A DNA stretch of 33,221 bases from NCBI GenBank assembly GCA_964428655.1, contig CAYRYE010000002.1:68251-101471 (forward strand), read 5' to 3'. The stretch comes from an uncultured Gammaproteobacteria bacterium. Lineage in GTDB: Bacteria > Patescibacteriota > Microgenomatia > UBA12405 > JAHJSD01. The notes under the pieces are model-generated. The model searched no databases and was not told the DNA's origin. It saw nothing but the letters and a program-made list of their open reading frames with translations. Position numbers and translations under genes: made by a program. Positions 62 to 21,069 of the stretch are shown piece after piece (the stretch's first letter is position 1; every line of letters begins with the position of its first letter).

Positions 62-667
62 TTAAGAAAAAACTATTAATCTTAGAAACACCAAGCCTCC
101 TCTTGCTAAACAAAGCAAATCCTTCCAAAAATTTCTATTTTTCACATATTCCAAGTCTGATTCCATCCATTTTTCAAAAGAAACCTGATGATAGCCAACA
201 AAAATCCAGGGAGAAATTATTCCTGGTAAAACTTGGCGGCGATATTTTTGATATTCTACAGCGATTTTACTCTCTTCTTTAGAGGGCAACGGCCGTGGTC
301 CCACAAAGGCCATTTCTCCTCTCAAAATATTCCAAAGTTGAGGTAATTCGTCTATTCCCCTCTCAGATAAAAATTTGCCTAGCTTGGTAAACCTAGGATC
401 ATTTTTAATCTTAAAGACCGGGCCACCAGCTTCGTTTAAATAACAATATCGCTCCTTCTCCCTTTCTGCGTCCTTAATCATAGTCCGAAACTTCCAAATC
501 CTAAAAAATTTCCCATCCTTCCCTACCCTTTGCTGTCCAAAGATTATTGGCCAACCATCATCTAGCCAAATAACAACTCCAATAAAAATGAAAACTGGCG
601 AAAGGGCCGCTAGCCCAATCAAGGCTAACCACTGCCAAAACAACTTTTCCAATTTTGCTCCATCCAT
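62..667 (-). CDS. Polyprenyl-phosphate sugar-1-phosphate transferase (bacterial sugar transferase family; initiating enzyme of a glycan pathway)
   Basis: 201-aa ORF with one N-terminal TM helix. It then carries the family-typical string GQQRVGKDGKFFRIWKFRTM...GPVFKIKNDPRFT...DELPQLWNILRGEMAFVGPRP. Confidence 0.85.
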   Translation of the reverse strand: MDGAKLEKLFWQWLALIGLAALSPVFIFIGVVIWLDDGWPIIFGQQRVGKDGKFFRIWKFRTMIKDAEREKERYCYLNEAGGPVFKIKNDPRFTKLGKFLSERGIDELPQLWNILRGEMAFVGPRPLPSKEESKIAVEYQKYRRQVLPGIISPWIFVGYHQVSFEKWMESDLEYVKNRNFWKDLLCLARGGLVFLRLIVFS

Positions 668-690
668 ATATAATAGTATTACTTAATTAA

Positions 691-2460: not shown

Positions 2461-3205
2461 TTTTTTTTCTCTATTGGGAACTAAAATAGCTGCGATAACT
2501 CCAAAGGAGGTCGTTAATTTTATTGAAAAAACAATTAGGACAAAGAGGCAAAGATTAATCTTCACCATTAATCTTGATCATCTTCAAAAAATGTCAAAAG
2601 ATAAAGCGTTCAAAAAAATATATTGCCAAGTTGATTTAGTTGTGGCCGACGGAATGCCAATTGTCTGGCTCTCACGAATTTTCAGCCCAATACCACTTCC
2701 CGCTCGGATTAACGGCACCAATTTGGTAGAAAAGATTTTAATGAAATCAAAAGCAAGTAATTTTAGAATCTTCCTCTTTGGTGCAAAAAAACAAATATTA
2801 GAAAAATTAAGGCAAAAATATACCCAGGCCAAAATCGTTGGCACTATCTCTCCCCCCTCTAATACGCCACCCAATCGCTGGCCAAATGGTCAATTTTGTC
2901 AACAAATCAGAAAAAGCAAAACTAATATTCTCTTGGTTGCCTTGGGTCCTCCAAAACAGGAAAAATGGCTGGTTAATAATTTTGACAAAACAGGAGCAAA
3001 TATTGGCATTGGTGTCGGTTCTGCTTTTGACCTTCTTGCCGGAATTAAAAAACGAGCGCCAAAGTGGATGCAAAACACAGGGCTAGAATGGCTTTTTCGC
3101 CTAATTCAAGAACCAAGACGATTAGGCCCGCGCTATTCCCGCCAAATATTGTTTATTCCTGCTCTTCTGGTAAAATTATTTCATGAAGGTTGCTCTGATT
3201 CATGA
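2438..3205 (+). CDS. WecB/TagA/CpsF-family glycosyltransferase (GT26)
   Basis: 255-aa ORF with VVADGMPIVWLSR, LFGAKK, LVALGPPKQEKW and LEWLFRLIQEPRR motifs characteristic of the family. It overlaps the upstream gene by 23 nt. Confidence 0.85.
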   Translation: MNLNKKYSFFSLLGTKIAAITPKEVVNFIEKTIRTKRQRLIFTINLDHLQKMSKDKAFKKIYCQVDLVVADGMPIVWLSRIFSPIPLPARINGTNLVEKILMKSKASNFRIFLFGAKKQILEKLRQKYTQAKIVGTISPPSNTPPNRWPNGQFCQQIRKSKTNILLVALGPPKQEKWLVNNFDKTGANIGIGVGSAFDLLAGIKKRAPKWMQNTGLEWLFRLIQEPRRLGPRYSRQILFIPALLVKLFHEGCSDS

Positions 3206-4325
3206 TTATCTAACTACTTTCGGCGGCGGTGAACAAGTGTTACTGGCATTAGCAAAAATGTTCCCTAAAGCGCCGATTTACACTGCCGTCGCTGATAAAA
3301 AATTTATAAACAAAATTCCTGAGTTAAAAGAGCGCAAAATCATCACCTCATGGTTTAATTATCTACCCTGCGCCGGCCGACTGCTTTCTCCCTTGAGATT
3401 CTTAATTCCTTTTATTTGGGAAGGCTTTGATTTTTCCAAATTCGATTTAGTTATTATCTCTTCTGCAGCCATGAACCCCCGAGGCATCCTGACTAAACCA
3501 GGAACAAAGACTATTGCTTATATTCATACCCCGCCGCGAAATCTCTATGGATACGAGACTGGTTCACTTTGGAAAAAGTACAAATTAATCCGTGTTTACG
3601 GTCGGTTCATCAACCATTTTTTGAGATTCTATGACTTTTATACCGCTCAAAAACCAGATATTTTAATCGCCAATTCTGAAACAACTTCCGCCAGAATTAA
3701 AAAATTTTGGCGGCGAGAAGCGAAAATTGTCCACCCTCCAGTAAAACTGCCAAATTTTTCCCTGAAAACGATCACTCCGCCAAACTCTGTTTTGCCAAAA
3801 AGATTTAGAAAAAAAAGATTTTACTTAAGTGTTTCTCGTCTTCAATACTCAAAAAGAGTTGATCTAATTATTAAAACCTTCAATAAGTTGAAAAAACCTT
3901 TGATTATTGTCGGTAGTGGTGAAGAGTTAAAAAGAGGTTTAAAGGGACTCAGCGCCAACTCAAACACTTTTTTCACAGGCTTCATTGCTAATAAATACTT
4001 ACCCTGGTTTTACCAACATGCTAAAGCTTTTATATTTGCCGCAAAAGACGAAGATTTTGGCATTGTTCCTGTGGAGGCCCAGGCTTATGGATTACCGGTA
4101 ATCGCCCATTTTTCCGGCGGCCCTCGGGAAACAATCACTGAGGGTAAAACCGGAACTTTCTTTAAACTCCATACTACTAAGTCACTTATTAAGGCCATTG
4201 AAAAATTGGATAAACTTCTAAAAGAGGGTAAAATCAAACCAGAATTTTGCCGCCAAAATGCCCAAAAATTTTCTGAAAAAAGGTTTACCCAAAAAATAAG
4301 GCAATTAATCAAAAATTTAGTATAA
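3183..4325 (+). CDS. GT4-family (GT-B fold) glycosyltransferase
   Basis: 380-aa ORF. N-terminus is MKVALIHDYLTTFGGGEQV. The C-terminal EDFGIVPVEAQAYGLPVIAHFSGGPRETITEGKTG matches the EX7E-type GT4 motif. Confidence 0.85.
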   Translation: MKVALIHDYLTTFGGGEQVLLALAKMFPKAPIYTAVADKKFINKIPELKERKIITSWFNYLPCAGRLLSPLRFLIPFIWEGFDFSKFDLVIISSAAMNPRGILTKPGTKTIAYIHTPPRNLYGYETGSLWKKYKLIRVYGRFINHFLRFYDFYTAQKPDILIANSETTSARIKKFWRREAKIVHPPVKLPNFSLKTITPPNSVLPKRFRKKRFYLSVSRLQYSKRVDLIIKTFNKLKKPLIIVGSGEELKRGLKGLSANSNTFFTGFIANKYLPWFYQHAKAFIFAAKDEDFGIVPVEAQAYGLPVIAHFSGGPRETITEGKTGTFFKLHTTKSLIKAIEKLDKLLKEGKIKPEFCRQNAQKFSEKRFTQKIRQLIKNLV

Positions 4326-4329
4326 AAAG

Positions 4330-5136
4330 ATGAAATTGAAAAAACTGACATTAGTCGTTCTATTGTTTTTAACGGGGCTGACTACTTTATTAACAATAAA
4401 AAAACTTTTAATTGCAGAGCAAAAATGGATTGAAATTCAAACGCTGTCCATGGCTGGAAGCTGGTGGTGGCAGTCACCGGCGCCGCCAATCTGGCTGTCT
4501 TCTCCACTAAAACTTGGCAGCCAGGAATTAAATTTCGCTGGAAAACCAATCGCAAAAATTCTTAAAATCGAGTCGTGGTCTGTACCCAGTGATAACTCTT
4601 CTTCCCTGCGTGATTATGCCGCCGCTAAATATCTTATCACCGCTAAAATCAGAGTTTCACAAAGCCCTGGCTCAGGAAAAATTTGGTTTAAAGACAACCC
4701 TGTTGCCGTTGGCCAACCGATTGTTTTGGAAATCAACAACACTCTAATCAACGGCAACATCACCTGGATTGAAAACCAATCAAAAGCAATAATAAAGAAG
4801 GCCAATGTCGAAATGATTCTCTATCACCGTTATCCTTGGGAGGCAAAACTAATTCAAAATAATCCCCCACTTTTAATAGGTGGCAAGGAAATATTTAAAA
4901 TCAATTCCGTGGCAACTTCATATTCGCCGCTGGAATGGCTTGAAAAGGGGCGATTAGTCTACCAAAAAGAATTAGTAGATATCAATGTCAAAGCAATAAT
5001 TGAAACGGAGATTATCAACAACGAGCCTGTTTTCTTAAAAGAGCAAACAATTAAAACCGGCAAAACTTTATTCGTACCTCTTAAAAATTATGAACTCGAC
5101 GGGGCTAAAATCAAAAAGATTGAATGGCTGGACTAA
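4330..5136 (+). CDS. Hypothetical membrane-anchored (N-terminal TM) extracytoplasmic protein
   Basis: 268-aa ORF packed tightly between neighbours. It has one N-terminal hydrophobic helix and a beta-rich-looking remainder. I do not recognise a family. Confidence 0.5.
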   Translation: MKLKKLTLVVLLFLTGLTTLLTIKKLLIAEQKWIEIQTLSMAGSWWWQSPAPPIWLSSPLKLGSQELNFAGKPIAKILKIESWSVPSDNSSSLRDYAAAKYLITAKIRVSQSPGSGKIWFKDNPVAVGQPIVLEINNTLINGNITWIENQSKAIIKKANVEMILYHRYPWEAKLIQNNPPLLIGGKEIFKINSVATSYSPLEWLEKGRLVYQKELVDINVKAIIETEIINNEPVFLKEQTIKTGKTLFVPLKNYELDGAKIKKIEWLD

Positions 5137-6343
5137 CCATCTCGGAATTTTAATTCTGATCATTTTCCTCCTCCCGCCAATCAAACTCCCATTCCTTGAC
5201 AAAACAACTTATGGGTTAGCAAAAGGCCTAATTTTAATTTTTATTTTATTGAAAAAACCTTTATCGCTTCTGTCTCGTCCATTCAAGCCTTTTCAAATCA
5301 CCCTCCTTTTCTATTTTCTCATCATAAACTTTTCTATTCTTCTATCACCGATGAACTCACTCCCGTTTAAGACATATTCTACTTTCGCTCTTTTTTCACT
5401 TCTCTTCTTTTTCCCACCCAAAATCACAAAAAACATAATTAAGAAAATAAGTCTTGGTGTCACTGTTTTCTTTATCTCAATAGCTTTAATCCAAAAATTT
5501 ACCCCTTCCCTGGCAAAAATTCTTGCCAATTTCTTTCTGCAAAAAAGTGACTATCGACTAACTTTCTTCAACTTAGCCCGCAGCCGCACCTATCCTCTTG
5601 GTTACCCTGAATTTTTTCTTCCTTGGCTTTTTTATTTTTACTCAAAAGCAAAAGGAGGGAAAGAAAAAACTATTTTTTTATCTCTTATTGGCGGCCTTTT
5701 TCTATTTGTTGTCTTTTCCGGTTTCCGCTGGAGGTTTCTAACTTTTTTCCTGGCATTAACTACTTATCTCTTTTTCAGTTTCAAAAAAAACATAAAAACA
5801 AAAATGGCCCTCGTCCTGCTCCCGCTAGCACTACTTTTGATTACAACAGGCTTACAAATCCCTTTATACCAGCGATTGCTTTTTAAAACTCAAGAAAGTA
5901 AAAATACTGCTCTCTCCCGAATAGAAATGGCCCGCAAATCAATCTATCTTTGGCGTGAATCTCCCATTCTGGGTGTTGGCTTCGGCAACTGGAATAAATT
6001 GGCGCCGCTACCTTTTGACTATGCCGGCCTACCTCTCTTCTATCAAGGATTTGAAACTTACTCAGAAACAATTTGGGAAATTAAAGAAGGTTGGAAAAAT
6101 GCCCACAACTGGTTTTTTGCCATGCTGGCGGAAACAGGAATTGTTGGCCTTGGGGCAACTTTGTTATTAGCTGGCTATATCTTTAAAACAGCCGTCAAAA
6201 ACATCTACCACCCCGCCAGCCAATCTCTCCTTCTTTTTTTATTCGCCACTCTCTTTGAAAACACCCACCTGGCAATCTCGGCACTAACATTTTTAATTCT
6301 AAACATGAACGTTCCCAAAACTAAACTACTTGATAAACAGTAA
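5090..6343 (+). CDS. O-antigen ligase/polymerase-like polytopic membrane protein (second paralogue)
   Basis: 417-aa ORF that is highly hydrophobic. SPILGVGFGNW and NAHNWFFAMLAETGIVG motifs parallel those of ORF 691-2460. Confidence 0.65.
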   Translation: MNSTGLKSKRLNGWTNHLGILILIIFLLPPIKLPFLDKTTYGLAKGLILIFILLKKPLSLLSRPFKPFQITLLFYFLIINFSILLSPMNSLPFKTYSTFALFSLLFFFPPKITKNIIKKISLGVTVFFISIALIQKFTPSLAKILANFFLQKSDYRLTFFNLARSRTYPLGYPEFFLPWLFYFYSKAKGGKEKTIFLSLIGGLFLFVVFSGFRWRFLTFFLALTTYLFFSFKKNIKTKMALVLLPLALLLITTGLQIPLYQRLLFKTQESKNTALSRIEMARKSIYLWRESPILGVGFGNWNKLAPLPFDYAGLPLFYQGFETYSETIWEIKEGWKNAHNWFFAMLAETGIVGLGATLLLAGYIFKTAVKNIYHPASQSLLLFLFATLFENTHLAISALTFLILNMNVPKTKLLDKQ

Positions 6344-8090
6344 TTAAATCATCCTTATAGAAAATTTCAAATTCACCTTTAAAAAAATCTAATAGCTCAT
6401 ACAATAGTTGTTCTAATTCATTCTCAATAAAAAATTCGTTATGAATTACTAAATAATCAATGTTCAGGCCCAACAAGCTGGTTTGAAATGTTTTTATGTT
6501 TGTTTCCCTAATAAAATCATCAAAGTTAAAGTCTATTGGCTTTTCTAAATTCAATTTTGAATATAACTCATCTTGAAATTTAATCAATCCATCCAAAAAA
6601 TCATCTTTTTTGTACAACTCAACCTGTTTTCTCGGCAAACGGCTGAGGAATCCTCCCAAGATGGGTTTCTGGTGAATAGTTTGATAGTAAACCGACCTTC
6701 CGGGATCTCTCCAAAAGGCCAACGGAATATCTAAAATAACTATTTCGCGCTTATCTTCCCTTAGACTTTTGTAAAATTGAGATATCCTTCTTCGCTCAAT
6801 TAAAATTGGCGCTGAGAATAAATCTACCAAACCAACCAAAAAAATCACCCCATATAATAAAAGTCTCCTATTATTGCTTGAGTTTTTTTCTGGCAGTAAA
6901 TCTTTAATCTCAAATACTAAAACTAGAGAAAAGAAGAGTATCACCAAAACAGTAAGCCTACCTGAGACCCTAAAATCACGAAGAAATGGGATCAATGAAA
7001 GTAAATAATAAGGCATCTTGGCTCCTGTTGCCCAACCCATTACACTAAGCTCGTCGCCAAGAGACAAAACTAACGAAAAGATGCCGGCAAAAAAGGCAAA
7101 TTTTTGCCACCGAGAAACAAAACGTCTTTTCCTTAAAATCCTTAACAGGAAGAACACTGGGATAATTCCCAAATAGACAATTCCCTCTGTAAATCCAGCG
7201 CTAAAACCACAAGTAATATTTGTAGATAAATTTACTCTCTTAAACAATCTTCTCCAAAATGTTCCCACACAATGAGGGATGAAAAACGAGGCCAAGTCTG
7301 TGGTATAACGATCTCCTCCCAATAAATAGAATTCATTGCCAAGATAAGTGCTGTAGAGTGTAACCATAATTGGCAATAAGACAACCCCCAAAATAGCCCC
7401 TGACAAAAAAAGATGGGAAAGAAAATCGCCAATCTTTTTTTTCTCTTTCAGATGAAAAGCAACGAAAAAAAGAACTAAAAGAATACCGCAGAAAAGATAA
7501 AAATAATCGGTTAAAAGCAAACCTATTAGTACCAACCCCAAAAAGAAGGCTTTTTTAATATTAGGTTTTTGCCAAAGCTTTATCAAAAGTAGTAGTAAAA
7601 GAGGAAAAAATTCTATTGAAGTAAAATTATAGTGTCCGCGCAAATGAGCGAAAACGTACGGAGAAAAAGCATAACTCATTCCGGCCATAAAAGAAGCAAA
7701 TTTGTGCTTCGTTAATTCATAAGCCAGAAGAAACATAAAAAAAGCAGATAAAATAAAAGAGCCAAAAATCAAAATATTATTAGCAATAATCAAGCCAAAA
7801 ATTAGCTGAAGAGGAATCGAAACAAAATTCCTCAAAGGAGTAAAGGTGTTATAAAGTAGGCTAGTTCCCCAAGGATAATAAATGTAATTAGAAAAGAATG
7901 GATTCGTTTTTAAATCTAACAAGGCAAACTTTGTCCACCATAAATTCCAAAGATATTGAATTGCGTCTCCTCCGTCACTAGGGAAGGCCGTTCTGAAATT
8001 AAGAATTAAAGGAAAAGTGAAAATTATTGTTAAACCCAAATAAGCTAAAATCAACCAAAGCCAAATCTTTTTCAAGTTGCCTTTATGCAT
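6321..8090 (-). CDS. Large polytopic membrane protein, putative GT-C-like glycosyltransferase, with a C-terminal soluble domain
   Basis: 589-aa ORF with ~12 hydrophobic segments. The first loop reads FPSDGGDAIQYLWNLWW...YYPWGTS. The acidic first loop and overall topology resemble GT-C enzymes. The family is not identified. Confidence 0.5.
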   Translation of the reverse strand: MHKGNLKKIWLWLILAYLGLTIIFTFPLILNFRTAFPSDGGDAIQYLWNLWWTKFALLDLKTNPFFSNYIYYPWGTSLLYNTFTPLRNFVSIPLQLIFGLIIANNILIFGSFILSAFFMFLLAYELTKHKFASFMAGMSYAFSPYVFAHLRGHYNFTSIEFFPLLLLLLIKLWQKPNIKKAFFLGLVLIGLLLTDYFYLFCGILLVLFFVAFHLKEKKKIGDFLSHLFLSGAILGVVLLPIMVTLYSTYLGNEFYLLGGDRYTTDLASFFIPHCVGTFWRRLFKRVNLSTNITCGFSAGFTEGIVYLGIIPVFFLLRILRKRRFVSRWQKFAFFAGIFSLVLSLGDELSVMGWATGAKMPYYLLSLIPFLRDFRVSGRLTVLVILFFSLVLVFEIKDLLPEKNSSNNRRLLLYGVIFLVGLVDLFSAPILIERRRISQFYKSLREDKREIVILDIPLAFWRDPGRSVYYQTIHQKPILGGFLSRLPRKQVELYKKDDFLDGLIKFQDELYSKLNLEKPIDFNFDDFIRETNIKTFQTSLLGLNIDYLVIHNEFFIENELEQLLYELLDFFKGEFEIFYKDDLITVYQVV

Positions 8091-8110
8091 CCTTTTAATA
8101 TAATTAAACC

Positions 8111-8845
8111 ATGATAAGAAGTAAATTTTCTATCATCATCCCCGTTTATAATGAAGAAGAAATTCTCGAAAAACAAACTGCCTTATTGTCCAAAGAGCTT
8201 AGGCACCGCTTTCCCTCCCATAATTATCAATGGGAAATTATTCTTGTTGAAAATGGGAGCAAAGACAACTCAAAAAAAATAACTAAAAAGCTTAAAACAA
8301 AACATCATTTCATTAAAAGTATTCATTTACCACATCCCAGTTATGGCAAAGCTTTAAAAGCTGGTCTTCAAAAAGCAAAATATCCTCTAGCAGTCATTTT
8401 TAACCTTGACTTCTTTGACACTAAATTTTTAAAAAAATCTTTAAAACTTCTAAATAACTGTGATATTATTGTTGGCTCAAAAACGCTTCCTCAGTCAGAA
8501 GACAAAAGATCAATTGTCCGCTCGCTAGGCACCTACCTTTTTAATGTTCTCCTTCGAATAATTTTCAACTATTCCGGAACAGATACTCATGGAATAAAAG
8601 TTTTAAAACTAAAACCAATATTACCGATGCTACCAAAGATAATTGCTAAAAAAGAATTGTTTGACACCGAACTCTTACTGCGTGCTTATCGTAAAGGGTT
8701 AATTATCACTGAATTACCTGTAAATGTAGCCGAAATTAGGCCATCGCGATATAATAACTTCAAAAGAGTCTGGAATACATTTGTTGATGGCTGCTTAATA
8801 TTTAGAAAAAAATATCTCAATGGATTCAATGATCACCGCCGATGA
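8111..8845 (+). CDS. GT2-family glycosyltransferase (polyprenyl-phosphate sugar synthase-like)
   Basis: 244-aa ORF starting with FSIIIPVYNEEE and followed by ILVENGSKDNS (DxD-like region). This is the typical GT-A/GT2 N-terminus. Confidence 0.85.
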   Translation: MIRSKFSIIIPVYNEEEILEKQTALLSKELRHRFPSHNYQWEIILVENGSKDNSKKITKKLKTKHHFIKSIHLPHPSYGKALKAGLQKAKYPLAVIFNLDFFDTKFLKKSLKLLNNCDIIVGSKTLPQSEDKRSIVRSLGTYLFNVLLRIIFNYSGTDTHGIKVLKLKPILPMLPKIIAKKELFDTELLLRAYRKGLIITELPVNVAEIRPSRYNNFKRVWNTFVDGCLIFRKKYLNGFNDHRR

Positions 8846-9458
8846 TTTCGGCTTGAATTCTCGAACTAATAAAGAAATTGTAAATTTATTTCTAAAGAAA
8901 AAAATTCATCGTGCTTCCTTGCTAACTAATCTTCCACACAGCAAAGAAGCTGCAATATTAGCTAAAAAATACAATGTCCCTACTGGACTCCACTTTAATC
9001 TTATTGAAGGCAAACCTTCATCTCTAAAATCAAAAGTAAAAAGCTTAACCAATTCAAAAGGATTTTTTTACCCCACTCCAATTTTCCTTTTGAGATTATT
9101 ATTTAACAAAATCAAAGATAAAGAAATTAAAAAAGAATTTTTAAGTCAAATAAATTTTTTAAGAAAACATAATTTAGAGCCAGAATTTGTTAACTCTCAC
9201 CAAAACATTCACTTATTCCCACCGGTTTATAAAGTCATTAAAACCTGCGAGCCATTATTGCCGCTAAGACCATTCCAGGTTATCACCAAGAGATTCTTAA
9301 AATTTCCTTTTAAATTAGTGTTTATTAAATTCATTTCTAAATTAGTTAACCTTTACTCAGAAAATAATGAAAAAGGGGAAATAATTATCCATCCGGGGAC
9401 TGATTATGACTTTAGCTTTTTAGAAAAGATTTTAGGCTTAACGACTATTAAAAAATGA
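8820..9458 (+). CDS. YdjC/ChbG-like carbohydrate deacetylase family protein (short form)
   Basis: 212-aa ORF. The N-terminal ITADDFGLNSRTNKEI with GLHFNL and HQNIH matches YdjC-family motifs. Its 3' end overlaps the convergent methyltransferase gene by 55 nt. Confidence 0.65.
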   Translation: MDSMITADDFGLNSRTNKEIVNLFLKKKIHRASLLTNLPHSKEAAILAKKYNVPTGLHFNLIEGKPSSLKSKVKSLTNSKGFFYPTPIFLLRLLFNKIKDKEIKKEFLSQINFLRKHNLEPEFVNSHQNIHLFPPVYKVIKTCEPLLPLRPFQVITKRFLKFPFKLVFIKFISKLVNLYSENNEKGEIIIHPGTDYDFSFLEKILGLTTIKK

Positions 9459-10123
9459 GGGTAGGGCAAAATACTAAAAACTCTTTTGCTTTTCAAAACA
9501 CAAAAACCCGCTTTCTTAAGCATATTTTCATATTCTTCCGCTGAGGCAAAGAAAGTTTTTTTATAACGAGAAAAAGTCAAACCAAAAAAGCTCTGCATTG
9601 CTTTTTCCTGAAATTTTAACCACCAATAGCTTAATCCCCTCTTCACGCCATTAACCTTGATTATTAACCTAGAAGAATCTTTGTGTTTCAACAGCTTATA
9701 AGCTTGCTTTAAAAGAAGCAATTTCTCATTACCAGGTAAAAGATAAAGAACATCAATTATCGTTATGGTATCAAAAAAATGAGAAAACTGTTTCACAAAT
9801 TTAGAACCAACAGTATCACTGATAATTCTCAATTTATTGCTTGCAATCCAAGTGGTCTTGCTTTTATCAGGATCAAGAGAGAAAACTTCGCATTCTGGAT
9901 ATTTAGATGAAATATTTAAACCAAAAATTCCATGACCCCCACCCAGGTCTAATAGTTTACCTTTTTGAGGAACTGCGCCTTCTACATCAGCAAAAGGACA
10001 TGACAAAAAACGGAGCCAAACAAATAACTTAGTTTTCCATCCGATTCTATTCTTAGCCAAAATCGCAAAACTGCTTTTTATAAACCGATTATTTCTCTGC
10101 CAAGACTTAAACATAATAAACAT
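9404..10123 (-). CDS. Class I SAM-dependent methyltransferase
   Basis: 239-aa ORF. KLLDLGGGHGIFG is motif I (GxGxG) and ITIIDVLYLL is a motif-II-like segment. An alternative ATG lies at 10114. Confidence 0.75.
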   Translation of the reverse strand: MFIMFKSWQRNNRFIKSSFAILAKNRIGWKTKLFVWLRFLSCPFADVEGAVPQKGKLLDLGGGHGIFGLNISSKYPECEVFSLDPDKSKTTWIASNKLRIISDTVGSKFVKQFSHFFDTITIIDVLYLLPGNEKLLLLKQAYKLLKHKDSSRLIIKVNGVKRGLSYWWLKFQEKAMQSFFGLTFSRYKKTFFASAEEYENMLKKAGFCVLKSKRVFSILPYPHFLIVVKPKIFSKKLKS

Positions 10124-10457
10124 GATAGAATTTCTTATTGTGACAGAACAAGTTTATCAACAGAAACAAAGTATTATTCAAGAAACAATTGATAATCAAA
10201 CTTTTATTCTTTTGCCAAAAAAGGGTAAACTCGTCGAGCTAAACAAAACTGCTTCCTTTATTTGGGAAAAGCTTAGGAAACCACAAACTATTAATCAAAT
10301 AATTAAATCCCTTTGCCATAAATTTGAAATACCCTCCTCCGCAGCTGAAAAAGACGTCCGCGCCACCATTGACAAGTTTTCCAAGCTAAAATTGATAAAG
10401 GGGGTAAAAGCGAAAAATAAACGAAAAACAAGCGCCAAAAGCGAGAGGAAAAAATAA
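10122..10457 (+). CDS. PqqD-family protein (RiPP recognition element-like peptide-binding domain) with a Lys-rich tail
   Basis: 111-aa ORF. NQTFILLPKKGKLVELNKTASFIWEKL...INQIIKSLCHKFEI...AEKDVRATIDKFSKLKLI follows the PqqD pattern of a beta-strand followed by LN and W. The last ~18 aa (KAKNKRKTSAKSERKK) are antisense to the neighbouring gene. Confidence 0.7.
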   Translation: MIEFLIVTEQVYQQKQSIIQETIDNQTFILLPKKGKLVELNKTASFIWEKLRKPQTINQIIKSLCHKFEIPSSAAEKDVRATIDKFSKLKLIKGVKAKNKRKTSAKSERKK

Positions 10458-11586
10458 ATCTTGCCATAATGGCCGCTTTTCTCCAAACAGGCACTGGCCA
10501 AAGTAAAAAACGGAGAATAGTATTTAAATAGAGATTCTTTTTTCTTTCTAGTATTGGATTAATTGGTTTGAAAAAAGTTTTTTCATTAATAAATAATTTC
10601 ACTATCTTTCCCCCAGGGGCTTCAAAATTATTTTTTAAACCAAACATCCGCCTGACCCAATAAATGTTTAGTTTAACTATAGGCAAACAATCATGAGAAT
10701 CTGCTAATTGCCACAATTTTTTCCAATTAATTTTTTTATTAAGAACGATATTAGCAATATCGGCCAATTGCCAAATGCCACGCATATTGTGGTTAAGGAA
10801 AAAATTCAAAGAAGCGTAGAATAACCATTCTGTTGGTTCTAAAAAATGGCCCTTTTTTATTTTCATTAATTCTTTTGATATTTTTTGGATCTTCTTTTTA
10901 TTAAAAGGCCACTGAAAGAACTGACCACTAGTCCAAGCAAAGGGTTCCAGGTGCAAGTCAATTTTTAATTCGACTTTCTTTTTAATAAAACTTATTTCCC
11001 CGGCAACAGGATCATTCCCCCGACAATGCTCGCATTCCACTCCCTGCTCAATTTTAATCTTCCAACCTTGGCTATTCAAAATTCTTTTTGCTTGAAAATA
11101 ATTATCCCTGCTTATTAACACATCCAGGTCAATAAATGGCTTATTGGGAAAACAGCCAAAATACTTTTTCTGCCAGAGGGGGCCTTTTAAAATCAAATAA
11201 TCAATTGATTTCTTTTTTAGCTCACTAGCAACTCTTTCCCATTCAAAAAGATAAACCAAGGCCAATTTTGGCCAAAAATCTCTTTTTACTTTTCCTAAAA
11301 ACAGTTTTGAAGAAAACCAACCATCAAAATAATTATTTGCCTCACCCCAAGTCAAACCCTTTTTTCCATGCTTTAATAACAAATAATGCAAAACCCCTTT
11401 TCTTGAAATCTTAACAAAAACTAAATCGCCGATTTTTAACTCATCAAAACTTACAGGAGAAATTTTTACCAACTTTTTAGAACTAATTACCGTACCCATA
11501 CTTTTCCCTGTTGGTTTTAGATTCACTGACTTTCCTTTTTTTAAAGATGATACAATTAATTTATGAGAAAATTCAGAACTATTCAT
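10303..11586 (-). CDS. Fusion protein: N-terminal S24/S26-type Ser-peptidase-like segment plus an uncharacterised nucleotidyltransferase (NTP_transf_5-like) domain
   Basis: 427-aa ORF. The N-terminus, LKPTGKSMGTVI...ELKIGDLVFVKISRKGVLHYLLLK, resembles the GxSMxP...GD...H(R/Y) pattern of signal-peptidase/LexA-type peptidases. The middle, ILKGPLWQKKYFG...KPFIDLDVLISRDNYFQAKRILNSQGWK, matches the nucleotidyltransferase family. Confidence 0.65.
   Translation of the reverse strand: MNSSEFSHKLIVSSLKKGKSVNLKPTGKSMGTVISSKKLVKISPVSFDELKIGDLVFVKISRKGVLHYLLLKHGKKGLTWGEANNYFDGWFSSKLFLGKVKRDFWPKLALVYLFEWERVASELKKKSIDYLILKGPLWQKKYFGCFPNKPFIDLDVLISRDNYFQAKRILNSQGWKIKIEQGVECEHCRGNDPVAGEISFIKKKVELKIDLHLEPFAWTSGQFFQWPFNKKKIQKISKELMKIKKGHFLEPTEWLFYASLNFFLNHNMRGIWQLADIANIVLNKKINWKKLWQLADSHDCLPIVKLNIYWVRRMFGLKNNFEAPGGKIVKLFINEKTFFKPINPILERKKNLYLNTILRFLLWPVPVWRKAAIMARFIFSSRFWRLFFVYFSLLPPLSILAWKTCQWWRGRLFQLRRRVFQIYGKGI
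11548..11556 (+). promoter_or_regulatory. Extended -10 promoter element TGaTACAAT, 6 nt upstream of ATG 11563 (leaderless-type)
   Basis: Read directly from the sequence: gaTGaTACAATtaatttATG. It lies inside the 5' end of the divergent gene. Confidence 0.4.
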
Positions 11587-12381
11587 CTAAAGATAGCTGA
11601 TTTAATATTTAAAATTAAAATTAACGCCGCTTTTAAAATCGTTGCCAAAATCTGGTTAACTAATTTACAAACATATTATAAATCTTTTCTTCTTAAAAAT
11701 GGCCAATCCAAAAAAACTGCAGCCGCTACTATTAGTTTAGAGCCAAAAATAGATTGGCAAATAAAACATGGAAAAAAAATAACCAATTACTCAATTATCA
11801 CAAAAAAAACAAAAACCAAATTAGGCTTTTTTAATCATCGAACTTCTAAAGGAGATTTTGATATTTTTTCCTCCTTTTATTCTTTTGATTTATTTTTCCG
11901 CTCAGTTTTCACTCAACTTATTAAAAATTACCAAGGAGCTGTTCTTCATGCCTCGTCAATCGCCGTAAACAAAGAAATCTTTGTTTTTTGCGCTCCTAAA
12001 CAAACAGGCAAAAGCACCATTGCCGCGCTTTGTCCCTTTTCTTGCCAAATTTATTCAGACGACAATACTATTATCCGCCGAATAAAAGAAAAAATATTTG
12101 TTTTCCCAACTCCTTTTATAGAAAGAAAAGGGCCTCTTTTGAAGAAAAAGGTTGACCATTTAGAGCTAAAAAAACTATATTTTATCTCTCAGGGAAAAAG
12201 GGATGGACTTAAATTAGTTAAATCCAAAAAAGAAAAACTTTTGCTTCTTTGGGAAAATATTAAAACCACCCCAGACCTATCTAAATCTCTAATGAAACTT
12301 ATTGATTTCTACCAACTGAAGTTTGCCCCCAAAAAAGGAATCTGGCAATTGCTAATCTCATCCTCCTGCGTATCAAACTAA
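11563..12381 (+). CDS. HPr-kinase-related (HprK C-terminal-domain-like) P-loop kinase
   Basis: 272-aa ORF. GAVLHASSIAVNKEIFVFCAPKQTGKSTIAAL is the LHAS...G-x-x-GKST core shared by HprK and HprK-related kinases. Confidence 0.7.
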   Translation: MRKFRTIHLKIADLIFKIKINAAFKIVAKIWLTNLQTYYKSFLLKNGQSKKTAAATISLEPKIDWQIKHGKKITNYSIITKKTKTKLGFFNHRTSKGDFDIFSSFYSFDLFFRSVFTQLIKNYQGAVLHASSIAVNKEIFVFCAPKQTGKSTIAALCPFSCQIYSDDNTIIRRIKEKIFVFPTPFIERKGPLLKKKVDHLELKKLYFISQGKRDGLKLVKSKKEKLLLLWENIKTTPDLSKSLMKLIDFYQLKFAPKKGIWQLLISSSCVSN

Positions 12382-12714: not shown

Positions 12715-14094
12715 ATGGGAAAAATTCCAACCATCCTTGCTTTACTGCTTTTGTGCGCGCTTCCCCTGACTCTTTTTGCTGTTTTTCAAAATCATGATTT
12801 AAGAAGAGCCGCCTTTGGCAAGAAGGCCGATATTGTTATTGATGTTTCCCAGCCTGGCGGGTCAATTTCTCAAAATTTATGGCAAAATTTTGCCCAAGGC
12901 GGCGAAGAGACCAAAGATATGATTGCCACGGTAATTAATGAGGTTAAGGCTTTAAGCCCTAAAATTATCCGAATTGATCATCTTTTTGACCACCATGTGA
13001 AAATTAACAGTGATCAATATGACTTCTCAGCCTTAGATGAAATTGTCCAGACTATTTTGCAAACCGGAGCGGTGCCAATGCTGGCTCTATCCTATATGCC
13101 CCCAGCCTTGTCTCAAGACGGCAAAAACGTTTCTCCGCCAAAAGATTGGAACCAATGGCGCCGTTTAGTGAGTGCCACTGTCTCGCGCTATAGCGGCCAT
13201 AACGGTCTTAATATAAACAATGTATATTACGAAGTCTGGAATGAGCCTGATTTATTTGGCAAGTGGCATTATGGCAAAAGCCCCAATTACTCAACCCTTT
13301 ATCACCACACTGTCAGTGCCATCCAATCAGTTGCCAATACTAATCCCCTTAAAGTTGGCGGACCGGCTACGACTGGCTTTTATCCTAACTGGATTAAGGC
13401 CTTGCTAAAACTCTGCCATAAAAATAACCTCAGAATTGACTTTATTTCTTGGCATCGATACAGCAAAAATTTAGAAGACTACGAAAAAGATTTCCAAAAA
13501 TTAAATCAGATTTTGACTGACTACCCCGAGTATTTTAATCTGGAGCGGCAAATCACAGAATTCGGTCCTGATTCTGAAAACTCAGCTTGGTACGACAACA
13601 AACTATCCGCTATCCATGCTATTGCCGGCATGACTAAACTCTTGGGGAAAGTTCACCGAATTTTTACATTTGAAATTAAAGATGGTCCTGACCCGTCGGG
13701 ACAACAGTATTGGGGTCGATGGGGTTTAATCACTCATGAAAAACACGGCATTGCTAAAAAACCACGCTACTTTGCCTACCAATTCCTGAACCAACTAACC
13801 GGCAACCGATTGCCTCTTGAGGGTGAAGGCAGTTGGGTCTCGGCAGTCGCTACCCAAACTAAGGGAACGACTAAAGTTTTAGTGGTTAACTATGATCCTC
13901 AAAACCGGCATTACGAAATGCCGCCAATTACCTTAAAAAATATCACCCCGGGAACTTATAATTTCAAATTAAGCTATTTTCAGGGGAAAAGCACCACCAC
14001 TCAAGAAGAAATTTCTCAATCAACAATAGTCAAAAAAGTAATCCTCCAACCTAATTCCGCGGCTATCCTAGAATGGCAAAAAGTCTCACCATAA
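12715..14094 (+). CDS. Secreted or membrane-anchored clan GH-A glycoside hydrolase (GH39/GH5-like TIM barrel)
   Basis: 459-aa ORF with an N-terminal signal or anchor (ILALLLLCALPLTLFAV). YYEVWNEPD is the acid/base NEP motif and QITEFG is the nucleophile Glu context. Confidence 0.7.
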   Translation: MGKIPTILALLLLCALPLTLFAVFQNHDLRRAAFGKKADIVIDVSQPGGSISQNLWQNFAQGGEETKDMIATVINEVKALSPKIIRIDHLFDHHVKINSDQYDFSALDEIVQTILQTGAVPMLALSYMPPALSQDGKNVSPPKDWNQWRRLVSATVSRYSGHNGLNINNVYYEVWNEPDLFGKWHYGKSPNYSTLYHHTVSAIQSVANTNPLKVGGPATTGFYPNWIKALLKLCHKNNLRIDFISWHRYSKNLEDYEKDFQKLNQILTDYPEYFNLERQITEFGPDSENSAWYDNKLSAIHAIAGMTKLLGKVHRIFTFEIKDGPDPSGQQYWGRWGLITHEKHGIAKKPRYFAYQFLNQLTGNRLPLEGEGSWVSAVATQTKGTTKVLVVNYDPQNRHYEMPPITLKNITPGTYNFKLSYFQGKSTTTQEEISQSTIVKKVILQPNSAAILEWQKVSP

Positions 14095-18912: not shown

Positions 18913-19110
18913 TCATCTTCTTCCACGAGGAAACGAGTCAGCGCCCCTTTGAGGATCTCTTGTCGTTCTTAGTCTTCTTTTTCCTTTAAGACTCTCCAAA
19001 CATCTGCCATTTGGAAAATGAAGGCACCTTGCTCTCAAACAAATTAGAAATCCCTTTGGTTTTTTACAGCCCGGCACTGGTCTAGTGATGATATCTGGAT
19101 TTTTAGCCAT
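18913..19110 (-). CDS. Hypothetical small basic 4-Cys protein (65 aa)
   Basis: The ORF start overlaps the ThyA-like stop by 8 nt, a coupling-type arrangement, and it fills an otherwise 200-nt gap. It uses AGA-rich low-GC codons. No family is recognised, so it could be non-coding. Confidence 0.3.
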   Translation of the reverse strand: MAKNPDIITRPVPGCKKPKGFLICLRARCLHFPNGRCLESLKGKRRLRTTRDPQRGADSFPRGRR

Positions 19111-20542
19111 TTTTTAATTCTTTGTCTTGCTCAAATTTTAATCCTAGTTTAACGGCATCTTCGGCCCGACCTAACTGCTCGCCAATATCTAAAGCGTGGT
19201 CAATTCTGGAAATAACATTACCACTCAGGAGTTTTTGGACCATTTTCAAAGCTGCTTTTTTTACTTTTCCATCTTGGCGATACTCGGCTAATATTTTACC
19301 ATCTAGTGACAAATGCTGAACAATGATTTCTTTTTTTCTCACCTCAATTATCAAACTTCCCCGAGGATCAATCTGGCAAAACAACTGTTGATTTTTCTCA
19401 ATAATCTTCTGTGCTCCAGATAAATCTCCTTCATCAATATGGGCACAGTGAGAAATTATTGTTAAATCTCCAGGTTTTTTGCCAATCCTTTCAGCAATCT
19501 CTGTTTGTAGTTTTTTTAGGGCAAAAGCGTTTTGAGGCCAAGCGGTAAACATATCATTGGATCGAAAATAAGCAGTCAAATGAAACTTGTTATCTAGACA
19601 AAAACCTTGAACTAAAGTTAAGCAAGGTGTTCGCCAAGGCTGGCGAATGGGAAAATTATCAATCTGCGGCTGCCATAAAACAGCCATGGCTCCTTTATTG
19701 TAGGGGAATTTTTTTAATTTTTTAACCATCATTGCCACCTGATCAACTGCTTTCTTTTCTGTTTGATAACTGAATAGTCTTTCTCCATAACTATACGGTT
19801 CTTTACCTCGATCGACCGAGAAAAAATTTTTAAAATAGTCTCGTAATCGATCTTTAGTAAAACCAAGAAAAGGCCGCAATTTTGGTTTTTTAATATTTTC
19901 ACCAGTAATTACTGCCGCCAAATTTAAAAGGGTCCTTTCATAACCGCCATAAACAAGACCTCTGGGTACCCGGCGGCCAAATTTAATAATCAAATTTAGA
20001 ATTTGAAGCCAAGCTTCGCCAATGGTTTTTGCCTCAACGCGAAAGACAGAATTTTCAGAAGGAAAATCAATTCCCTTTGGTTTGATTTCTGGAAAAAGTT
20101 TTCCTTTTTTGGCAAAAGCTGGTTTGGAAACCAAAGAATTAATTAATTTTTTTAATTCAGCCATTGATCGATTGCGATAATCAATTATTTCAACATTTTT
20201 AGAAAAAATATCAATAAATTTATCCGGCACTGTTTCTAAGAAGCTTTTAATTTCGTCTGATTGGCCCCTTGCCTTTAACAAAGGGTCAGCACTGCCAACT
20301 TGGTCATTGCCGGTGATAATTAAGTAGCGAATCTTAGGATTAGCCCAAATGTTGCGAAAAATAAACTCAATTCCTCTTTTAGTATAAAGCTGGCCAATCA
20401 CAGCCACTTTTTCTTTTGACTTCTTATCTAAAGCCCAAATAATCTTTTCTTTCGGCGTCCATAAAGTGGCAATGCCAATAAAGCCGTTTTTAACGTTGCC
20501 TAACCAAAGTCTTTCTCGATAATAAAGAGGCCATCTAGCCAT
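19103..20542 (-). CDS. Thymidylate-synthase (ThyA)-fold enzyme with additional N-terminal (~140 aa, MtrA-like?) and C-terminal (~95 aa, DUF4346-like?) domains
   Basis: 479-aa ORF. The core, AVLWQP...RTPCLTLVQGF...LTAYFRSNDMFTAWPQNAFAL, parallels ThyA SAWNP / PCH / QRSxD / PFN motifs with the catalytic Cys retained. Flanking-domain assignments come from memory of motif shapes only. Confidence 0.7.
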   Translation of the reverse strand: MARWPLYYRERLWLGNVKNGFIGIATLWTPKEKIIWALDKKSKEKVAVIGQLYTKRGIEFIFRNIWANPKIRYLIITGNDQVGSADPLLKARGQSDEIKSFLETVPDKFIDIFSKNVEIIDYRNRSMAELKKLINSLVSKPAFAKKGKLFPEIKPKGIDFPSENSVFRVEAKTIGEAWLQILNLIIKFGRRVPRGLVYGGYERTLLNLAAVITGENIKKPKLRPFLGFTKDRLRDYFKNFFSVDRGKEPYSYGERLFSYQTEKKAVDQVAMMVKKLKKFPYNKGAMAVLWQPQIDNFPIRQPWRTPCLTLVQGFCLDNKFHLTAYFRSNDMFTAWPQNAFALKKLQTEIAERIGKKPGDLTIISHCAHIDEGDLSGAQKIIEKNQQLFCQIDPRGSLIIEVRKKEIIVQHLSLDGKILAEYRQDGKVKKAALKMVQKLLSGNVISRIDHALDIGEQLGRAEDAVKLGLKFEQDKELKNG

Positions 20543-20580: not shown

Positions 20581-21069
20581 TCATTTTTGTCCGCTGGTGT
20601 CCCTCAATCTTTGTTCTGATCTATCGCCTTTTAGTTCAACCCTTTCACATTTAACCCCCATTTTTCCCAAAAGAGTGACGGCTGTCCGATCGCCATAACA
20701 ATCTAAATAATAAATTTCTTTGATCCCTGAAACTAAAATCAGCTTGGCGCAATTCATGCAAGGCATACAGGTAATATAGGCAGATGCGTTTTTAAGAGAA
20801 ATTCCTTTTTTTGCGGCTAAGGAAATAGCTTGGGCTTCAGCATGAACGCTGCGGCATTTTTCCAGATCTTTTCCCAATCCTAACTTAAGCTTGTCCCGTA
20901 AACAACCATGCTTTTGGCAAAAATCATTAGTTGGATAAACTTTATTGAAAGCTTCAACCAAAACTTCGCCATCTTTAGCAATCACTGCTCCTCTTTTCCC
21001 CCGAACACAACCTGATTCCAAAGCCAATTTCGCCGCTCGTTTAAGAAAATATCGCCTGTTTTTCTTCAT
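20581..21069 (-). CDS. comEB: dCMP deaminase (cytidine/deoxycytidylate deaminase zinc-binding family)
   Basis: 162-aa ORF with HAEAQAI (the H-A-E zinc and catalytic motif) and TCMPCMNCAKLI (PCxxC). Confidence 0.85.
   Translation of the reverse strand: MKKNRRYFLKRAAKLALESGCVRGKRGAVIAKDGEVLVEAFNKVYPTNDFCQKHGCLRDKLKLGLGKDLEKCRSVHAEAQAISLAAKKGISLKNASAYITCMPCMNCAKLILVSGIKEIYYLDCYGDRTAVTLLGKMGVKCERVELKGDRSEQRLRDTSGQK

Follow-up and report, generated by a model that had tools for sequence, protein, structure and literature searches.

The 33,221-nucleotide stretch of contig CAYRYE010000002.1 analysed here (hereafter the window) carries a four-gene module that encodes a 48-residue candidate precursor peptide, a PqqD-family protein, an ScmC-like P-loop protein and a fusion of an S26B-like peptidase domain with an NTP_transf_5 nucleotidyltransferase domain (Table 1). 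Together, these genes probably constitute a leader-guided peptide maturation module of the RiPP (ribosomally made, post-translationally modified peptide) type in a Patescibacteria (Microgenomates-like) genome. The general claim of leader-guided peptide processing, considered by itself, can be made with appreciably greater confidence, and the specific chemistry of phosphorylation combined with nucleotidyl or glycosyl transfer, drawn by analogy, is put forward tentatively and with some doubt. The module is not an isolated oddity but one member of a large Patescibacteria family, being common to about 90 metagenomic loci. Its composition, a precursor with a conserved leader and a variable core beside a RiPP recognition element (RRE) and processing enzymes, is that generically expected of a RiPP system.

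A candidate precursor family with a conserved leader and a variable core

The candidate precursor gene lies directly downstream of the scmC-like gene and in convergent orientation. Its product (full open reading frame, ORF, MRVKQKFSKKESYQKPKVKVSEFKTEVLLGSSFRRNGYGDNFITQQYF) reads MRVKQKFSKKESYQKPKVKVSEFKTEVLLGSSFRRNGYGDNFIT up to a predicted junction at F42-I43-T44, which is followed by the four-residue tail QQYF, and its Lys-rich leader bears Y13-x-x-P16-x-V18, in a lasso-type Y-x-K-P-K-[IV] motif. An ORF in the same position and orientation is found in each close relative examined (L001, L003, L004, L006, L171/L172 and L173, where L numbers denote related loci), and position, orientation and motif are kept in seven non-redundant loci of the close clade and in about 30 more distant ones. 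The peptide itself exists as a 48-residue predicted protein in a public protein collection, and its homologues, found in Patescibacteria and Candidatus Microgenomates, bear no label beyond 'hypothetical protein'. The initial annotation of this DNA, in which a trio of genes for a PqqD-like protein, a peptidase–nucleotidyltransferase and an HprK-like kinase was recognized, raised the question of whether a small ORF accompanies the trio; a conserved ORF with a lasso-like leader does adjoin it, which makes a peptide-processing role much more credible.

A motif search across about 95 related loci yielded 37 distinct precursors, in which the Tyr is present in 36 of 37 (one has Trp), Pro follows at +3 in all, and Ile, Val or Leu stands two residues further on, again in all 37. 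The leader consensus, KKKKYxKPKIKxKKIKxNFF, is Lys-rich, and a Y-x-x-P-x-L core is the element recognized by lasso B1 (PqqD) proteins. At 26–39 residues past the Tyr comes another conserved stretch, hydrophobic-hydrophobic-Ala (with Ser, Thr or Gly now and then replacing Ala), which forms a junction with Ala (or Ser/Thr/Gly) at -1 and an aliphatic residue at -3. S26 peptidases show -1/-3 specificity, with a small residue at -1 and an aliphatic one at -3, and the aligned precursor junctions fit this pattern. An independent MAFFT alignment puts the F-I-T of the window in the conserved junction column. An internal LL[GD] of the close clade was also considered as the cleavage site and was dropped, comparison with the canonical clade placing the conserved junction nearer the C-terminus.

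Beyond the junction, the sequences diverge completely and follow two styles, namely tiny tails of 3–6 residues (QQYF, RIIS, RLIS, GFIS, SHISGW, ATWNPQ, VGISGA, KRISPV, VQISAV, TFKS, VLTSPI and SIAR) and Cys-rich cores of 10–55 residues. The combination of a conserved leader and a hypervariable core is the signature of RiPP precursors. A promoter and terminator scan of this AT-rich region gave results no better than shuffled sequence, and a TTGACA-N17-TTATAA arrangement noticed by eye 12 nt upstream of the precursor ATG was given no weight. In the canonical clade (L154 3716-4234, L159 9203-9796 and about 28 other loci), a family of 170–210 residues is encoded directly upstream of the precursor gene; it has one N-terminal transmembrane helix and no Pfam or NCBIfam match, and it is absent from the window clade.

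Proteins predicted to act on the precursor

The 111-residue PqqD-family protein matches the Pfam PqqD profile with 55.4 bits (cutoff 23.4), and its best NCBIfam matches, all below cutoff, are lasso-type PqqD chaperones (lasso_PqqD_Bac, 7.8e-12, and lasso_PqqD_Strm). By these profile scores, it is most similar to the lasso B1 chaperones. The protein ends in a Lys-rich C-terminal tail, and its gene adjoins the fusion gene in most related loci.

The N-terminal part of the fusion protein is recognized mainly through its family. Taken alone, the first ~100 residues in the window match the archaeal-type signal peptidase I model TIGR02228 weakly (E = 0.008) and stay below every curated cutoff. A profile built from 24 such domains matches human SEC11C (E = 1.6e-6) and SEC11A (7e-6), aligned through the Ser, His and GDNN..D boxes, and Pfam Peptidase_S24 and Peptidase_S26 are matched by 21 and 6, respectively, of the 24 homologous N-terminal domains. 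The motifs G27-K-S29-M30, I-G-D-L-V, L-H67-Y-L and G81-E-A-N84...D88 can be followed through the domain, with G27, S29, M30, H67, G81 and D88 invariant in the alignment. An AlphaFold2 (AF2) model of the fusion protein computed from 120 sequences (predicted local distance difference test score, pLDDT, 91.5; predicted template modelling score, pTM, 0.88) returned the LexA C-domain (TM up to 0.64), SpsB and SEC11C in Foldseek comparisons of its N-terminal part. Sequence and model together point to the features of clan SF (S24/S26) peptidases of the Sec11/SipW type: the GxSM Ser, the box-D His, the conserved Asp and the beta-barrel fold. An N-terminal membrane anchor is absent, the N-terminus MNSSEFSHKLIVSSLKKGKS being hydrophilic, and a soluble or C-terminally anchored cytoplasmic enzyme is therefore expected.

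The following domain matches NTP_transf_5 (PF14907) over residues 110-316 with 77.4 bits (cutoff 31.2), and its key residues are K134-G135, D153-x-D155, E197, D210-x-H212 and H266. An alignment of 120 sequences shows G135, D153, D155 and H212 to be invariant; K134, D210 and H266 are each conserved in at least 90% of it, and E197 is invariant in a 20-sequence alignment. The closest structures found by Foldseek for this part are MenT1 (TMt 0.60, E = 2.5e-4), ANT(2'')-Ia, LnuA and CCA-adding enzymes. Residues 346-427 form a helical tail (AF2 helices 348-424) that is partly hydrophobic and conserved within the close clade, and that is possibly a membrane anchor. In an exhaustive search of 1.84 billion representative proteins, the fusion protein gave 230 matches at E <= 1e-3; most of the 150 listed among them are full-length proteins of ~400–430 residues that align from residue 8–25 on, so that both domains together characterize the family. 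The N-terminal peptidase domain is also encountered as a free-standing protein. A word-indexed homologue search returned only four relatives each for the fusion and ScmC-like proteins, the family becoming visible through the exhaustive search, and a scan of GTDB species genomes with the fusion protein returned no relatives.

The ScmC-like protein matches ScmC itself (TIGR04249) weakly, with E = 4.9e-5 and 22.8 bits (cutoff 125), and HprK_rel_A (TIGR04352) with E = 0.046 and 12.8 bits (cutoff 200). Its family-level membership rests on its homologues, which carry a precomputed PF27840 ScmC annotation. A profile of 48 sequences matches ATP-dependent phosphoenolpyruvate carboxykinase (PEPCK; 3.9e-6) and HPr kinase/phosphorylase 1ko7 (9.2e-6). 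The recognizable motifs are L-H129-A-S131-S, the Walker A sequence P-K-Q-T-G149-K150-S-T152 and D166-D167; among 48 homologues, T152 is invariant, and H129, S131, G149, K150, D166 and D167 are nearly invariant (at least 90%). These His, Walker A and Asp-Asp elements are those of the HprK/PEPCK P-loop fold. The catalytic residues of the enzyme domains described in the initial annotation are intact, comprising S29/H67/D88 in the peptidase, K134-G135, D153xD155 and D210xH212 in the nucleotidyltransferase, and H129, G149-K150-S-T152 and D166-D167 in the ScmC-like protein.

Gene order and gene boundaries

Gene and domain calls were based on the ORF list of the window and on Pfam and NCBIfam profile searches. 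These searches agree with the initial annotation on the identity and position of the PqqD, peptidase–NTP_transf_5 and HprK-like P-loop parts, and its placement of the module between a glycan locus (62-10123) and a GH39 glycosidase gene (12715-14094) is correct. Its coordinates for the module (10122-12381) leave out the 48-residue precursor ORF at 12544-12398. The three genes had been described as contiguous; they are indeed adjacent, with the correction that the middle gene lies on the minus strand and overlaps both neighbours. Its 5' end overlaps the 5' end of the scmC-like gene by 24 nt, and its 3' end overlaps that of pqqD by 155 nt. The C-terminal tails of PqqD and of the fusion protein are consequently encoded on opposite strands of the same DNA, and this antisense overlap is kept across relatives (window 10303-10457, 155 nt; L001 5584-5750, 167 nt; L003 2579-2679, 101 nt; L008 9376-9404, 29 nt).

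Public gene calls place the start of the fusion gene about 20 codons too late. Since the G-x-S-M motif lies in-frame upstream of the called starts and is kept there in three relatives, the upstream ATG is taken as the true start. Pfam scans covered 31 ORFs of the window, namely all non-nested ORFs of at least 90 residues up to 25.9 kb and three beyond, with those in the GC-rich 26.0-27.1 kb excluded, and no Asn_synthase, transglutaminase or ABC transporter was detected among them, in line with the earlier statement that the window holds no lasso cyclase, transglutaminase-like protease or ABC exporter.

Linkage and variation across related loci

Linkage was counted for genes within 10 kb of the fusion gene, in the 26 non-redundant loci whose flanks extend for at least 5 kb on each side. 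ScmC was present in 22 of these loci and PqqD in at least 20, and neither occurred in any of 80 rpsB-anchored control loci from other taxa (1.17 Mb in total), none of which carries the module. Local hidden Markov model searches also placed PqqD and ScmC genes beside the fusion gene in most loci with enough flank. The linkage of the trio, on which its interpretation had been made to depend, is thus tight across about 90 loci.

The fusion of the peptidase domain to the nucleotidyltransferase, which the initial annotation singled out, holds for the window and is optional in the family. In the closest syntenic relatives (L171/L172 and L173), the peptidase (138–140 residues) and the nucleotidyltransferase (314–319 residues) are encoded by separate, overlapping convergent genes. 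Because the two are fused in some genomes and adjacent or overlapping in others, they can be regarded as functionally linked by the Rosetta-stone argument.

Further enzymes accompany the module in part of the family. YcaO was found in 6 of the 26 loci and a nitroreductase-type dehydrogenase in 5; other loci add YcaO together with a nitroreductase-type dehydrogenase and a PAPS (3'-phosphoadenosine-5'-phosphosulfate)-reductase-like protein, radical-SAM (S-adenosylmethionine)/SPASM enzymes, or ABC transporters. Cys-rich precursor cores occur in sister loci carrying YcaO or radical-SAM enzymes, and this company implies that the module operates on ribosomal peptides. Conversely, 8 of 9 distinct tiny-tail precursors (L171/L172 counted once) have no YcaO or radical-SAM gene in the visible flanks, the exception being L170, in which YcaO is present together with a second, Cys-containing precursor. 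The expected pairing of Cys-rich cores with YcaO or radical-SAM enzymes holds only partly, neither being visible in several of the Cys-rich loci. What all these loci have in common is thus not YcaO or radical SAM but the set of precursor, PqqD, ScmC and peptidase plus nucleotidyltransferase.

Two further kinds of variation were observed. Beside the fusion gene, L124 (7851-9146) and L164 (635-1897) encode a PqqD-like domain joined to a PP-loop ATPase (SGGLDS motif), and nearby small ORFs have a YxxPx[IL] leader and end in ...KIITDY and ...KIATDY; these loci may represent a different chemistry on the same platform. In L102, L103, L116, L141, L162 and L167, AbiEii-type nucleotidyltransferase toxin pairs and AAA_14/DUF4143 ATPase genes lie between the fusion gene and PqqD/ScmC, and the module locus appears to be a hotspot for such insertions.

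Proposed maturation pathway

In the pathway proposed here, PqqD would bind the leader and present the peptide to both enzymes. The ScmC/HprK-like protein would phosphorylate a hydroxyl of the tail, in the window Thr44 or Tyr47 and in most relatives the Ser of the I-S motif, and the NTP_transf_5 domain may add a nucleotidyl or sugar-phosphate type group there, in parallel to PsmK/PsmN in pseudomycoidin, where PsmN is presumably a PF14907 member. The cytoplasmic Sec11/SipW-like Ser-His domain would remove the leader past the hydrophobic-hydrophobic-Ala/Thr junction, in the window between F-I-T and QQYF. It would thereby stand in for the lasso B2 cysteine protease, in the same architectural position with a different fold, and the product would be a very short modified peptide. 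Precedents for the individual steps exist in lasso systems, in which the C-terminal Ser of precursors receives a phosphate from HPr-kinase homologues ahead of processing, a hexose is added to this phosphate by PsmN, and the nucleotidyltransferase is fused to the B2 leader protease in several Firmicutes clusters (PMC8498205).

Several observations weigh against this pathway. Phosphorylation, nucleotidylylation and cleavage are all proposed from homology and analogy, and the ScmC-like protein scores weakly against the curated ScmC and HprK models; its AF2 model, obtained from four sequences, had a pLDDT of 49 and was unusable. S26 peptidases as a rule carry an N-terminal anchor, which is absent here, and cleave on the trans side of the membrane; the window clade also has Glu, Gln or Trp in place of the first Asp of the GDNN box. 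As for the substrate, the QQYF tail lacks the Ser seen in most relatives, F-I-T is the least canonical junction of the set, and a product of 3–6 residues is unusual. Moreover, the four genes alternate in orientation (+ - + -) and hence do not form a simple operon, and the strong linkage to glycan genes described below is unexplained by a simple secreted-peptide model.

Association with envelope-glycan genes and alternative explanations

Glycan-related families are enriched within 10 kb of the fusion gene relative to the control loci: DUF4330-like in 16 of 26 loci versus 0 of 80 controls, Bac_transf in 13 versus 1, Wzy_C-TPR in 13 versus 5, GT4 in 12 versus 2, and Wzy_C in 11 versus 2. Since the controls differ taxonomically, this enrichment may in part reflect synteny within the lineage. 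The same families nevertheless recur where the fusion proteins are only 20–30% identical to that of the window, and in L171/L172 the peptidase gene is separated from pqqD by a GT4 gene. The association between module and glycan genes is too consistent to ignore, and the conserved linkage to Bac_transf, Wzy_C and DUF4330-like genes suggests that the fate of the product is tied to the cell-envelope glycan machinery. The initial annotation spoke of a minimal system; this is right insofar as cyclase and B2 protease are lacking, and 'minimal' may understate the setting, a conserved Bac_transf/Wzy_C/DUF4330-like glycan neighbourhood being present almost everywhere.

Taken further, the linkage leads to an explanation that overlaps leader-guided maturation and differs in the product. 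The short peptide, or a phospho- or nucleotidyl derivative of it, would be joined to, or would prime, a glycan built by Bac_transf, GT4 and WecG and transferred by Wzy_C-family proteins (which include O-antigen ligases and O-oligosaccharyltransferases), yielding a glycopeptide or a peptide-capped surface polymer. We consider this unlikely, while still the strongest competitor. Besides the enrichment of the five families and the interleaved GT4 gene, it can draw on the tiny tails, which often contain or end in Ile-Ser, on the placement of hexose on phospho-Ser by PsmN-type enzymes (PMC8498205), and on rumen lasso clusters in which a nucleotidyltransferase and an HPr kinase are accompanied by GT2 and EpsH genes (PMC7533575). 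Its weaknesses are that the rpsB-anchored controls come from other taxa, such that Patescibacteria synteny could account for part of the signal, that action of Wzy_C on peptides is without direct evidence, and that loci combining YcaO or radical-SAM enzymes with Cys-rich cores resemble conventional RiPP clusters.

It is improbable that the system has no peptide substrate at all, with the nucleotidyltransferase and kinase acting on a sugar, lipid or nucleotide of the glycan pathway, PqqD playing a generic part and the small ORF being unrelated or non-coding. The module is embedded in a glycan locus, PF14907 is functionally uncharacterized, and the nearest structural relatives of the nucleotidyltransferase (ANT(2'')-Ia, LnuA and MenT1) use small molecules or tRNA. 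However, proteins of the PqqD family specialize in binding peptides, the module includes a peptidase domain, either fused or adjacent, the Y..P.[ILV] motif and the junction are conserved in 37 divergent small ORFs, the window peptide is present in a public protein collection, and sister loci pair peptide-modifying YcaO or radical-SAM enzymes with Cys-rich cores.

We regard as very improbable an ordinary lasso cluster in which the cyclase and B2 protease are encoded elsewhere and the kinase and nucleotidyltransferase serve only in tailoring. A PqqD closest to lasso B1 models, the Y-x-x-P-x-[ILV] leader motif and the occurrence of such kinases and nucleotidyltransferases as lasso tailoring genes (PMC8498205, PMC7533575) speak for it. 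Against it, Asn_synthase and transglutaminase domains are missing from the 31 scanned ORFs of the 33-kb window, the tails are 3–6 residues long or Cys-rich without Asp/Glu at position 7-9 or Thr at -2, and the Tyr stands ~32 residues from the junction rather than 17. The possibility that cyclase and B2 protease lie just outside the trio in syntenic genomes, which the initial annotation had raised, was followed up, and neither recurs in the related loci. Among 110 representative neighbour families (46 loci), a single Asn_synthase was encountered, at L145 6745-8640. This gene of L145/L146 encodes a canonical glutamine-dependent asparagine-synthase-like protein of 632 residues with an MCGIVG glutaminase N-terminus and stands among GT4 and Wzy_C genes beside the module; a role as glycan amidotransferase is more probable for it than one in lasso cyclization. 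A B2 transglutaminase-like protease was absent from the window scans and from the precomputed annotations of L001, L003, L006, L008, L171 and L173; the summary of neighbour families across the loci covers the top 25 and leaves room for rare occurrences elsewhere.

A toxin-antitoxin or anti-phage module built on a MenT/AbiEii-like nucleotidyltransferase under kinase control is comparably implausible: the MenT1 toxin is the best Foldseek match and AbiEii-type pairs occur in several related loci, but these pairs are separate insertions from different clusters, the four proteins have no PADLOC match, and an RRE with a leader peptide and a peptidase is unlike known toxin-antitoxin or defence architecture.

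Relationship to known systems

Leader-guided maturation by this module can be set against five groups of characterized or curated systems. The lasso systems of paeninodin (PadeK) and pseudomycoidin (PsmK/PsmN) share with it a stand-alone PqqD closest to lasso B1, a Y-x-x-P-x-[ILV] leader, an HprK-fold P-loop kinase alongside a nucleotidyltransferase, and a leader protease that sometimes forms one polypeptide with the nucleotidyltransferase. In contrast to them, the window lacks an Asn-synthetase-like cyclase, its protease is of a Ser-His, S26B-like type instead of the transglutaminase-like Cys type of B2, and its P-loop protein is ScmC-like rather than PadeK/HprK_rel-like. Leaders of the window family have roughly double the length, some 32 residues separating the Tyr from the junction compared with 17 in lasso precursors; they lack Thr at -2, ring-forming Asp/Glu at position 7-9 is missing, and tails of 3–6 residues or Cys-rich tails would be unable to form a lasso.

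The SynChlorMet (SCM) cassette, defined by ScmC (TIGR04249), the PqqD-like ScmD (TIGR04248) and two radical-SAM/SPASM proteins, has the same pairing of ScmC-family and PqqD-family proteins, and the sister loci L111, L121, L165 and L008 carry radical-SAM/SPASM genes beside Cys-rich precursors. In the window, by contrast, there is no radical-SAM gene among the scanned ORFs, the scores are far below the equivalog cutoffs (28.1 vs 100 bits for TIGR04248 and 22.8 vs 125 for TIGR04249), and the S26-like peptidase and NTP_transf_5 fall outside the SCM definition. To our knowledge, no precursor has been identified for the SCM cassette.

The HPr-rel-A system (TIGR04352/04355) is likewise a cyclase-free neighbourhood of a PqqD-family protein and an HprK-like P-loop protein; it includes an uncharacterized nucleotidyltransferase and has been flagged as being of unknown function. 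The window differs in that matches to HprK_rel_A (E = 0.046) and, for a sister protein, HprK_rel_B (E = 0.046) are insignificant. We know of no description of an S26-like peptidase or of a precursor family of the window type for this system.

With the Sec11/SipW (S26B) peptidases of the LexA/S24 fold, the N-terminal domain of the fusion protein shares the Ser (GxSM), GDxV, His (xHRx) and GDNN..D boxes, the fold, and a predicted cleavage site with a small residue at -1 and an aliphatic one at -3. It departs from them in lacking an N-terminal anchor, in being fused or adjacent to a cytoplasmic nucleotidyltransferase, in its proposed substrate (a RiPP-type leader, not a Sec signal peptide), in the replacement of the first Asp of GDNN in the window clade, and in scores that, for the window domain alone, remain below curated cutoffs. 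Finally, clusters for linear azol(in)e peptides (thiazole/oxazole-modified microcins, TOMM) and radical-SAM RiPPs find counterparts in sister loci that combine the same leader family and module with YcaO/dehydrogenase or radical-SAM/SPASM enzymes and Cys-rich cores, whereas the window and most tiny-core loci lack those enzymes in the visible flanks.

By these comparisons of sequence and gene content, the system would not be classed as a lasso cluster, an equivalog-level SCM cassette or an HPr-rel-A system. No NCBIfam model exceeds its cutoff with any of the four module proteins, canonical clade included, and PADLOC gives no match to the four proteins of the window. In the literature consulted, which included RRE-mining papers and lay outside subscription-only sources, no system of PqqD, S24/S26–nucleotidyltransferase and ScmC and no such precursor family is described. 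The pathway would be of RiPP type and built from known folds, with a new type of putative leader peptidase and a new precursor family.

Implications

Patescibacteria have tiny genomes and are thought to be poor in secondary metabolism. A bolder and distinctly speculative extension of leader-guided maturation is that the module represents a new Patescibacteria-wide RiPP class, in which an S26B leader peptidase, NTP_transf_5 and an ScmC/HprK-like kinase act on a lasso-like leader with no cyclase, and whose minimal form delivers a phospho-, nucleotidyl- or glycosyl-peptide of 3–6 residues to a Wzy_C/Bac_transf surface-glycan pathway. If this were true, an envelope polymer of ultra-small bacteria would be capped or primed by a peptide made on ribosomes. 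The tight coupling to O-antigen-ligase-like and phosphoglycosyl-transferase genes raises the idea of a ribosomal peptide in the surface building of episymbiotic bacteria. With the 48-residue precursor, a concrete substrate can be proposed for ScmC/PqqD/NTP_transf_5 neighbourhoods, listed in curated resources only as 'uncharacterised', and the soluble Sec11/SipW-like domain fused or adjacent to a nucleotidyltransferase is a candidate new type of RiPP leader peptidase. One leader-handling platform would be reused in Patescibacteria with YcaO, with radical-SAM enzymes or without extra enzymes. The four genes are small and thus amenable to co-expression and mass spectrometry.

Other features of the window

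The features of the module and of its neighbourhood are compiled in Table 1.

Table 1. Module genes, fusion-protein domains and neighbouring genes in the window (nucleotide positions within the window)
Feature	Position	Strand	Basis or remark
Candidate precursor peptide, 48 aa	12398..12544	-	conserved ORF in relatives
PqqD-family protein, 111 aa	10122..10457	+	Pfam PqqD profile
Fusion protein: S26B-like peptidase, NTP_transf_5 and C-terminal helical hydrophobic tail, 427 aa	10303..11586	-	Pfam, AF2
N-terminal peptidase domain of fusion, residues 1-103	11278..11586	-	SEC11 profile match, Foldseek
NTP_transf_5 (pol-beta-fold) domain of fusion, residues 104-345	10552..11277	-	PF14907
C-terminal tail of fusion, residues 346-427	10306..10551	-	alignment, AF2 helices
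ScmC-family HprK/PEPCK-like P-loop protein, 272 aa	11563..12381	+	TIGR04249, PF27840 of homologues, profile
Bac_transf	62-667		Pfam
Wzy_C-TPR-like	691-2460		Pfam
WecG	2438-3205		Pfam
GT4	3183-4325		Pfam
DUF4330-like	4330-5136		Pfam
Wzy_C	5090-6343		Pfam
Multi-pass membrane protein, 589 aa	6321-8090		no Pfam match; recurs in glycan loci of L001 and L145
GT2	8111-8845		Pfam
YdjC deacetylase	8820-9458		Pfam
Methyltransferase	9404-10123		Pfam
GH39 glycosidase, N-terminal signal/anchor	12715..14094	+	Glyco_hydro_39, 119 bits; also in syntenic L173 and L171

The low GC content (~0.36) and the compact gene order of the window fit a reduced Patescibacteria genome, and the best match of the rpsB product (ribosomal protein S2), from a Candidatus Microgenomates metagenome-assembled genome, reaches 54% identity. 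Rfam gave no match in the window. Between 26000 and 27000 lies a GC-rich island (GC 0.54 vs ~0.36 elsewhere) with a 178-residue ORF at 26376-26912, whose product has an N-terminal hydrophobic segment and a Cys/Gly/Asp-rich body and whose only match, to a snoRNA, is at chance level; it is probably a horizontally acquired surface protein gene.

Three further long proteins of the window also deserve mention. A 971-residue protein at 28967-31882 has no Pfam match. At 19103-20542, a 479-residue protein combines an MtrA-like N-terminal region, a thymidylate-synthase domain and a PterinBD-DUF4346 C-terminus, and the same fusion (501 residues) is found in the syntenic locus L173. The 736-residue protein at 21066-23276 joins an APH/choline-kinase-like kinase, two cytidylyltransferase-like domains and a HIT domain, and its gene stands beside a GT4/starch-synthase-like gene; the protein appears to unite in one chain the steps that activate a phospho-alcohol head group.

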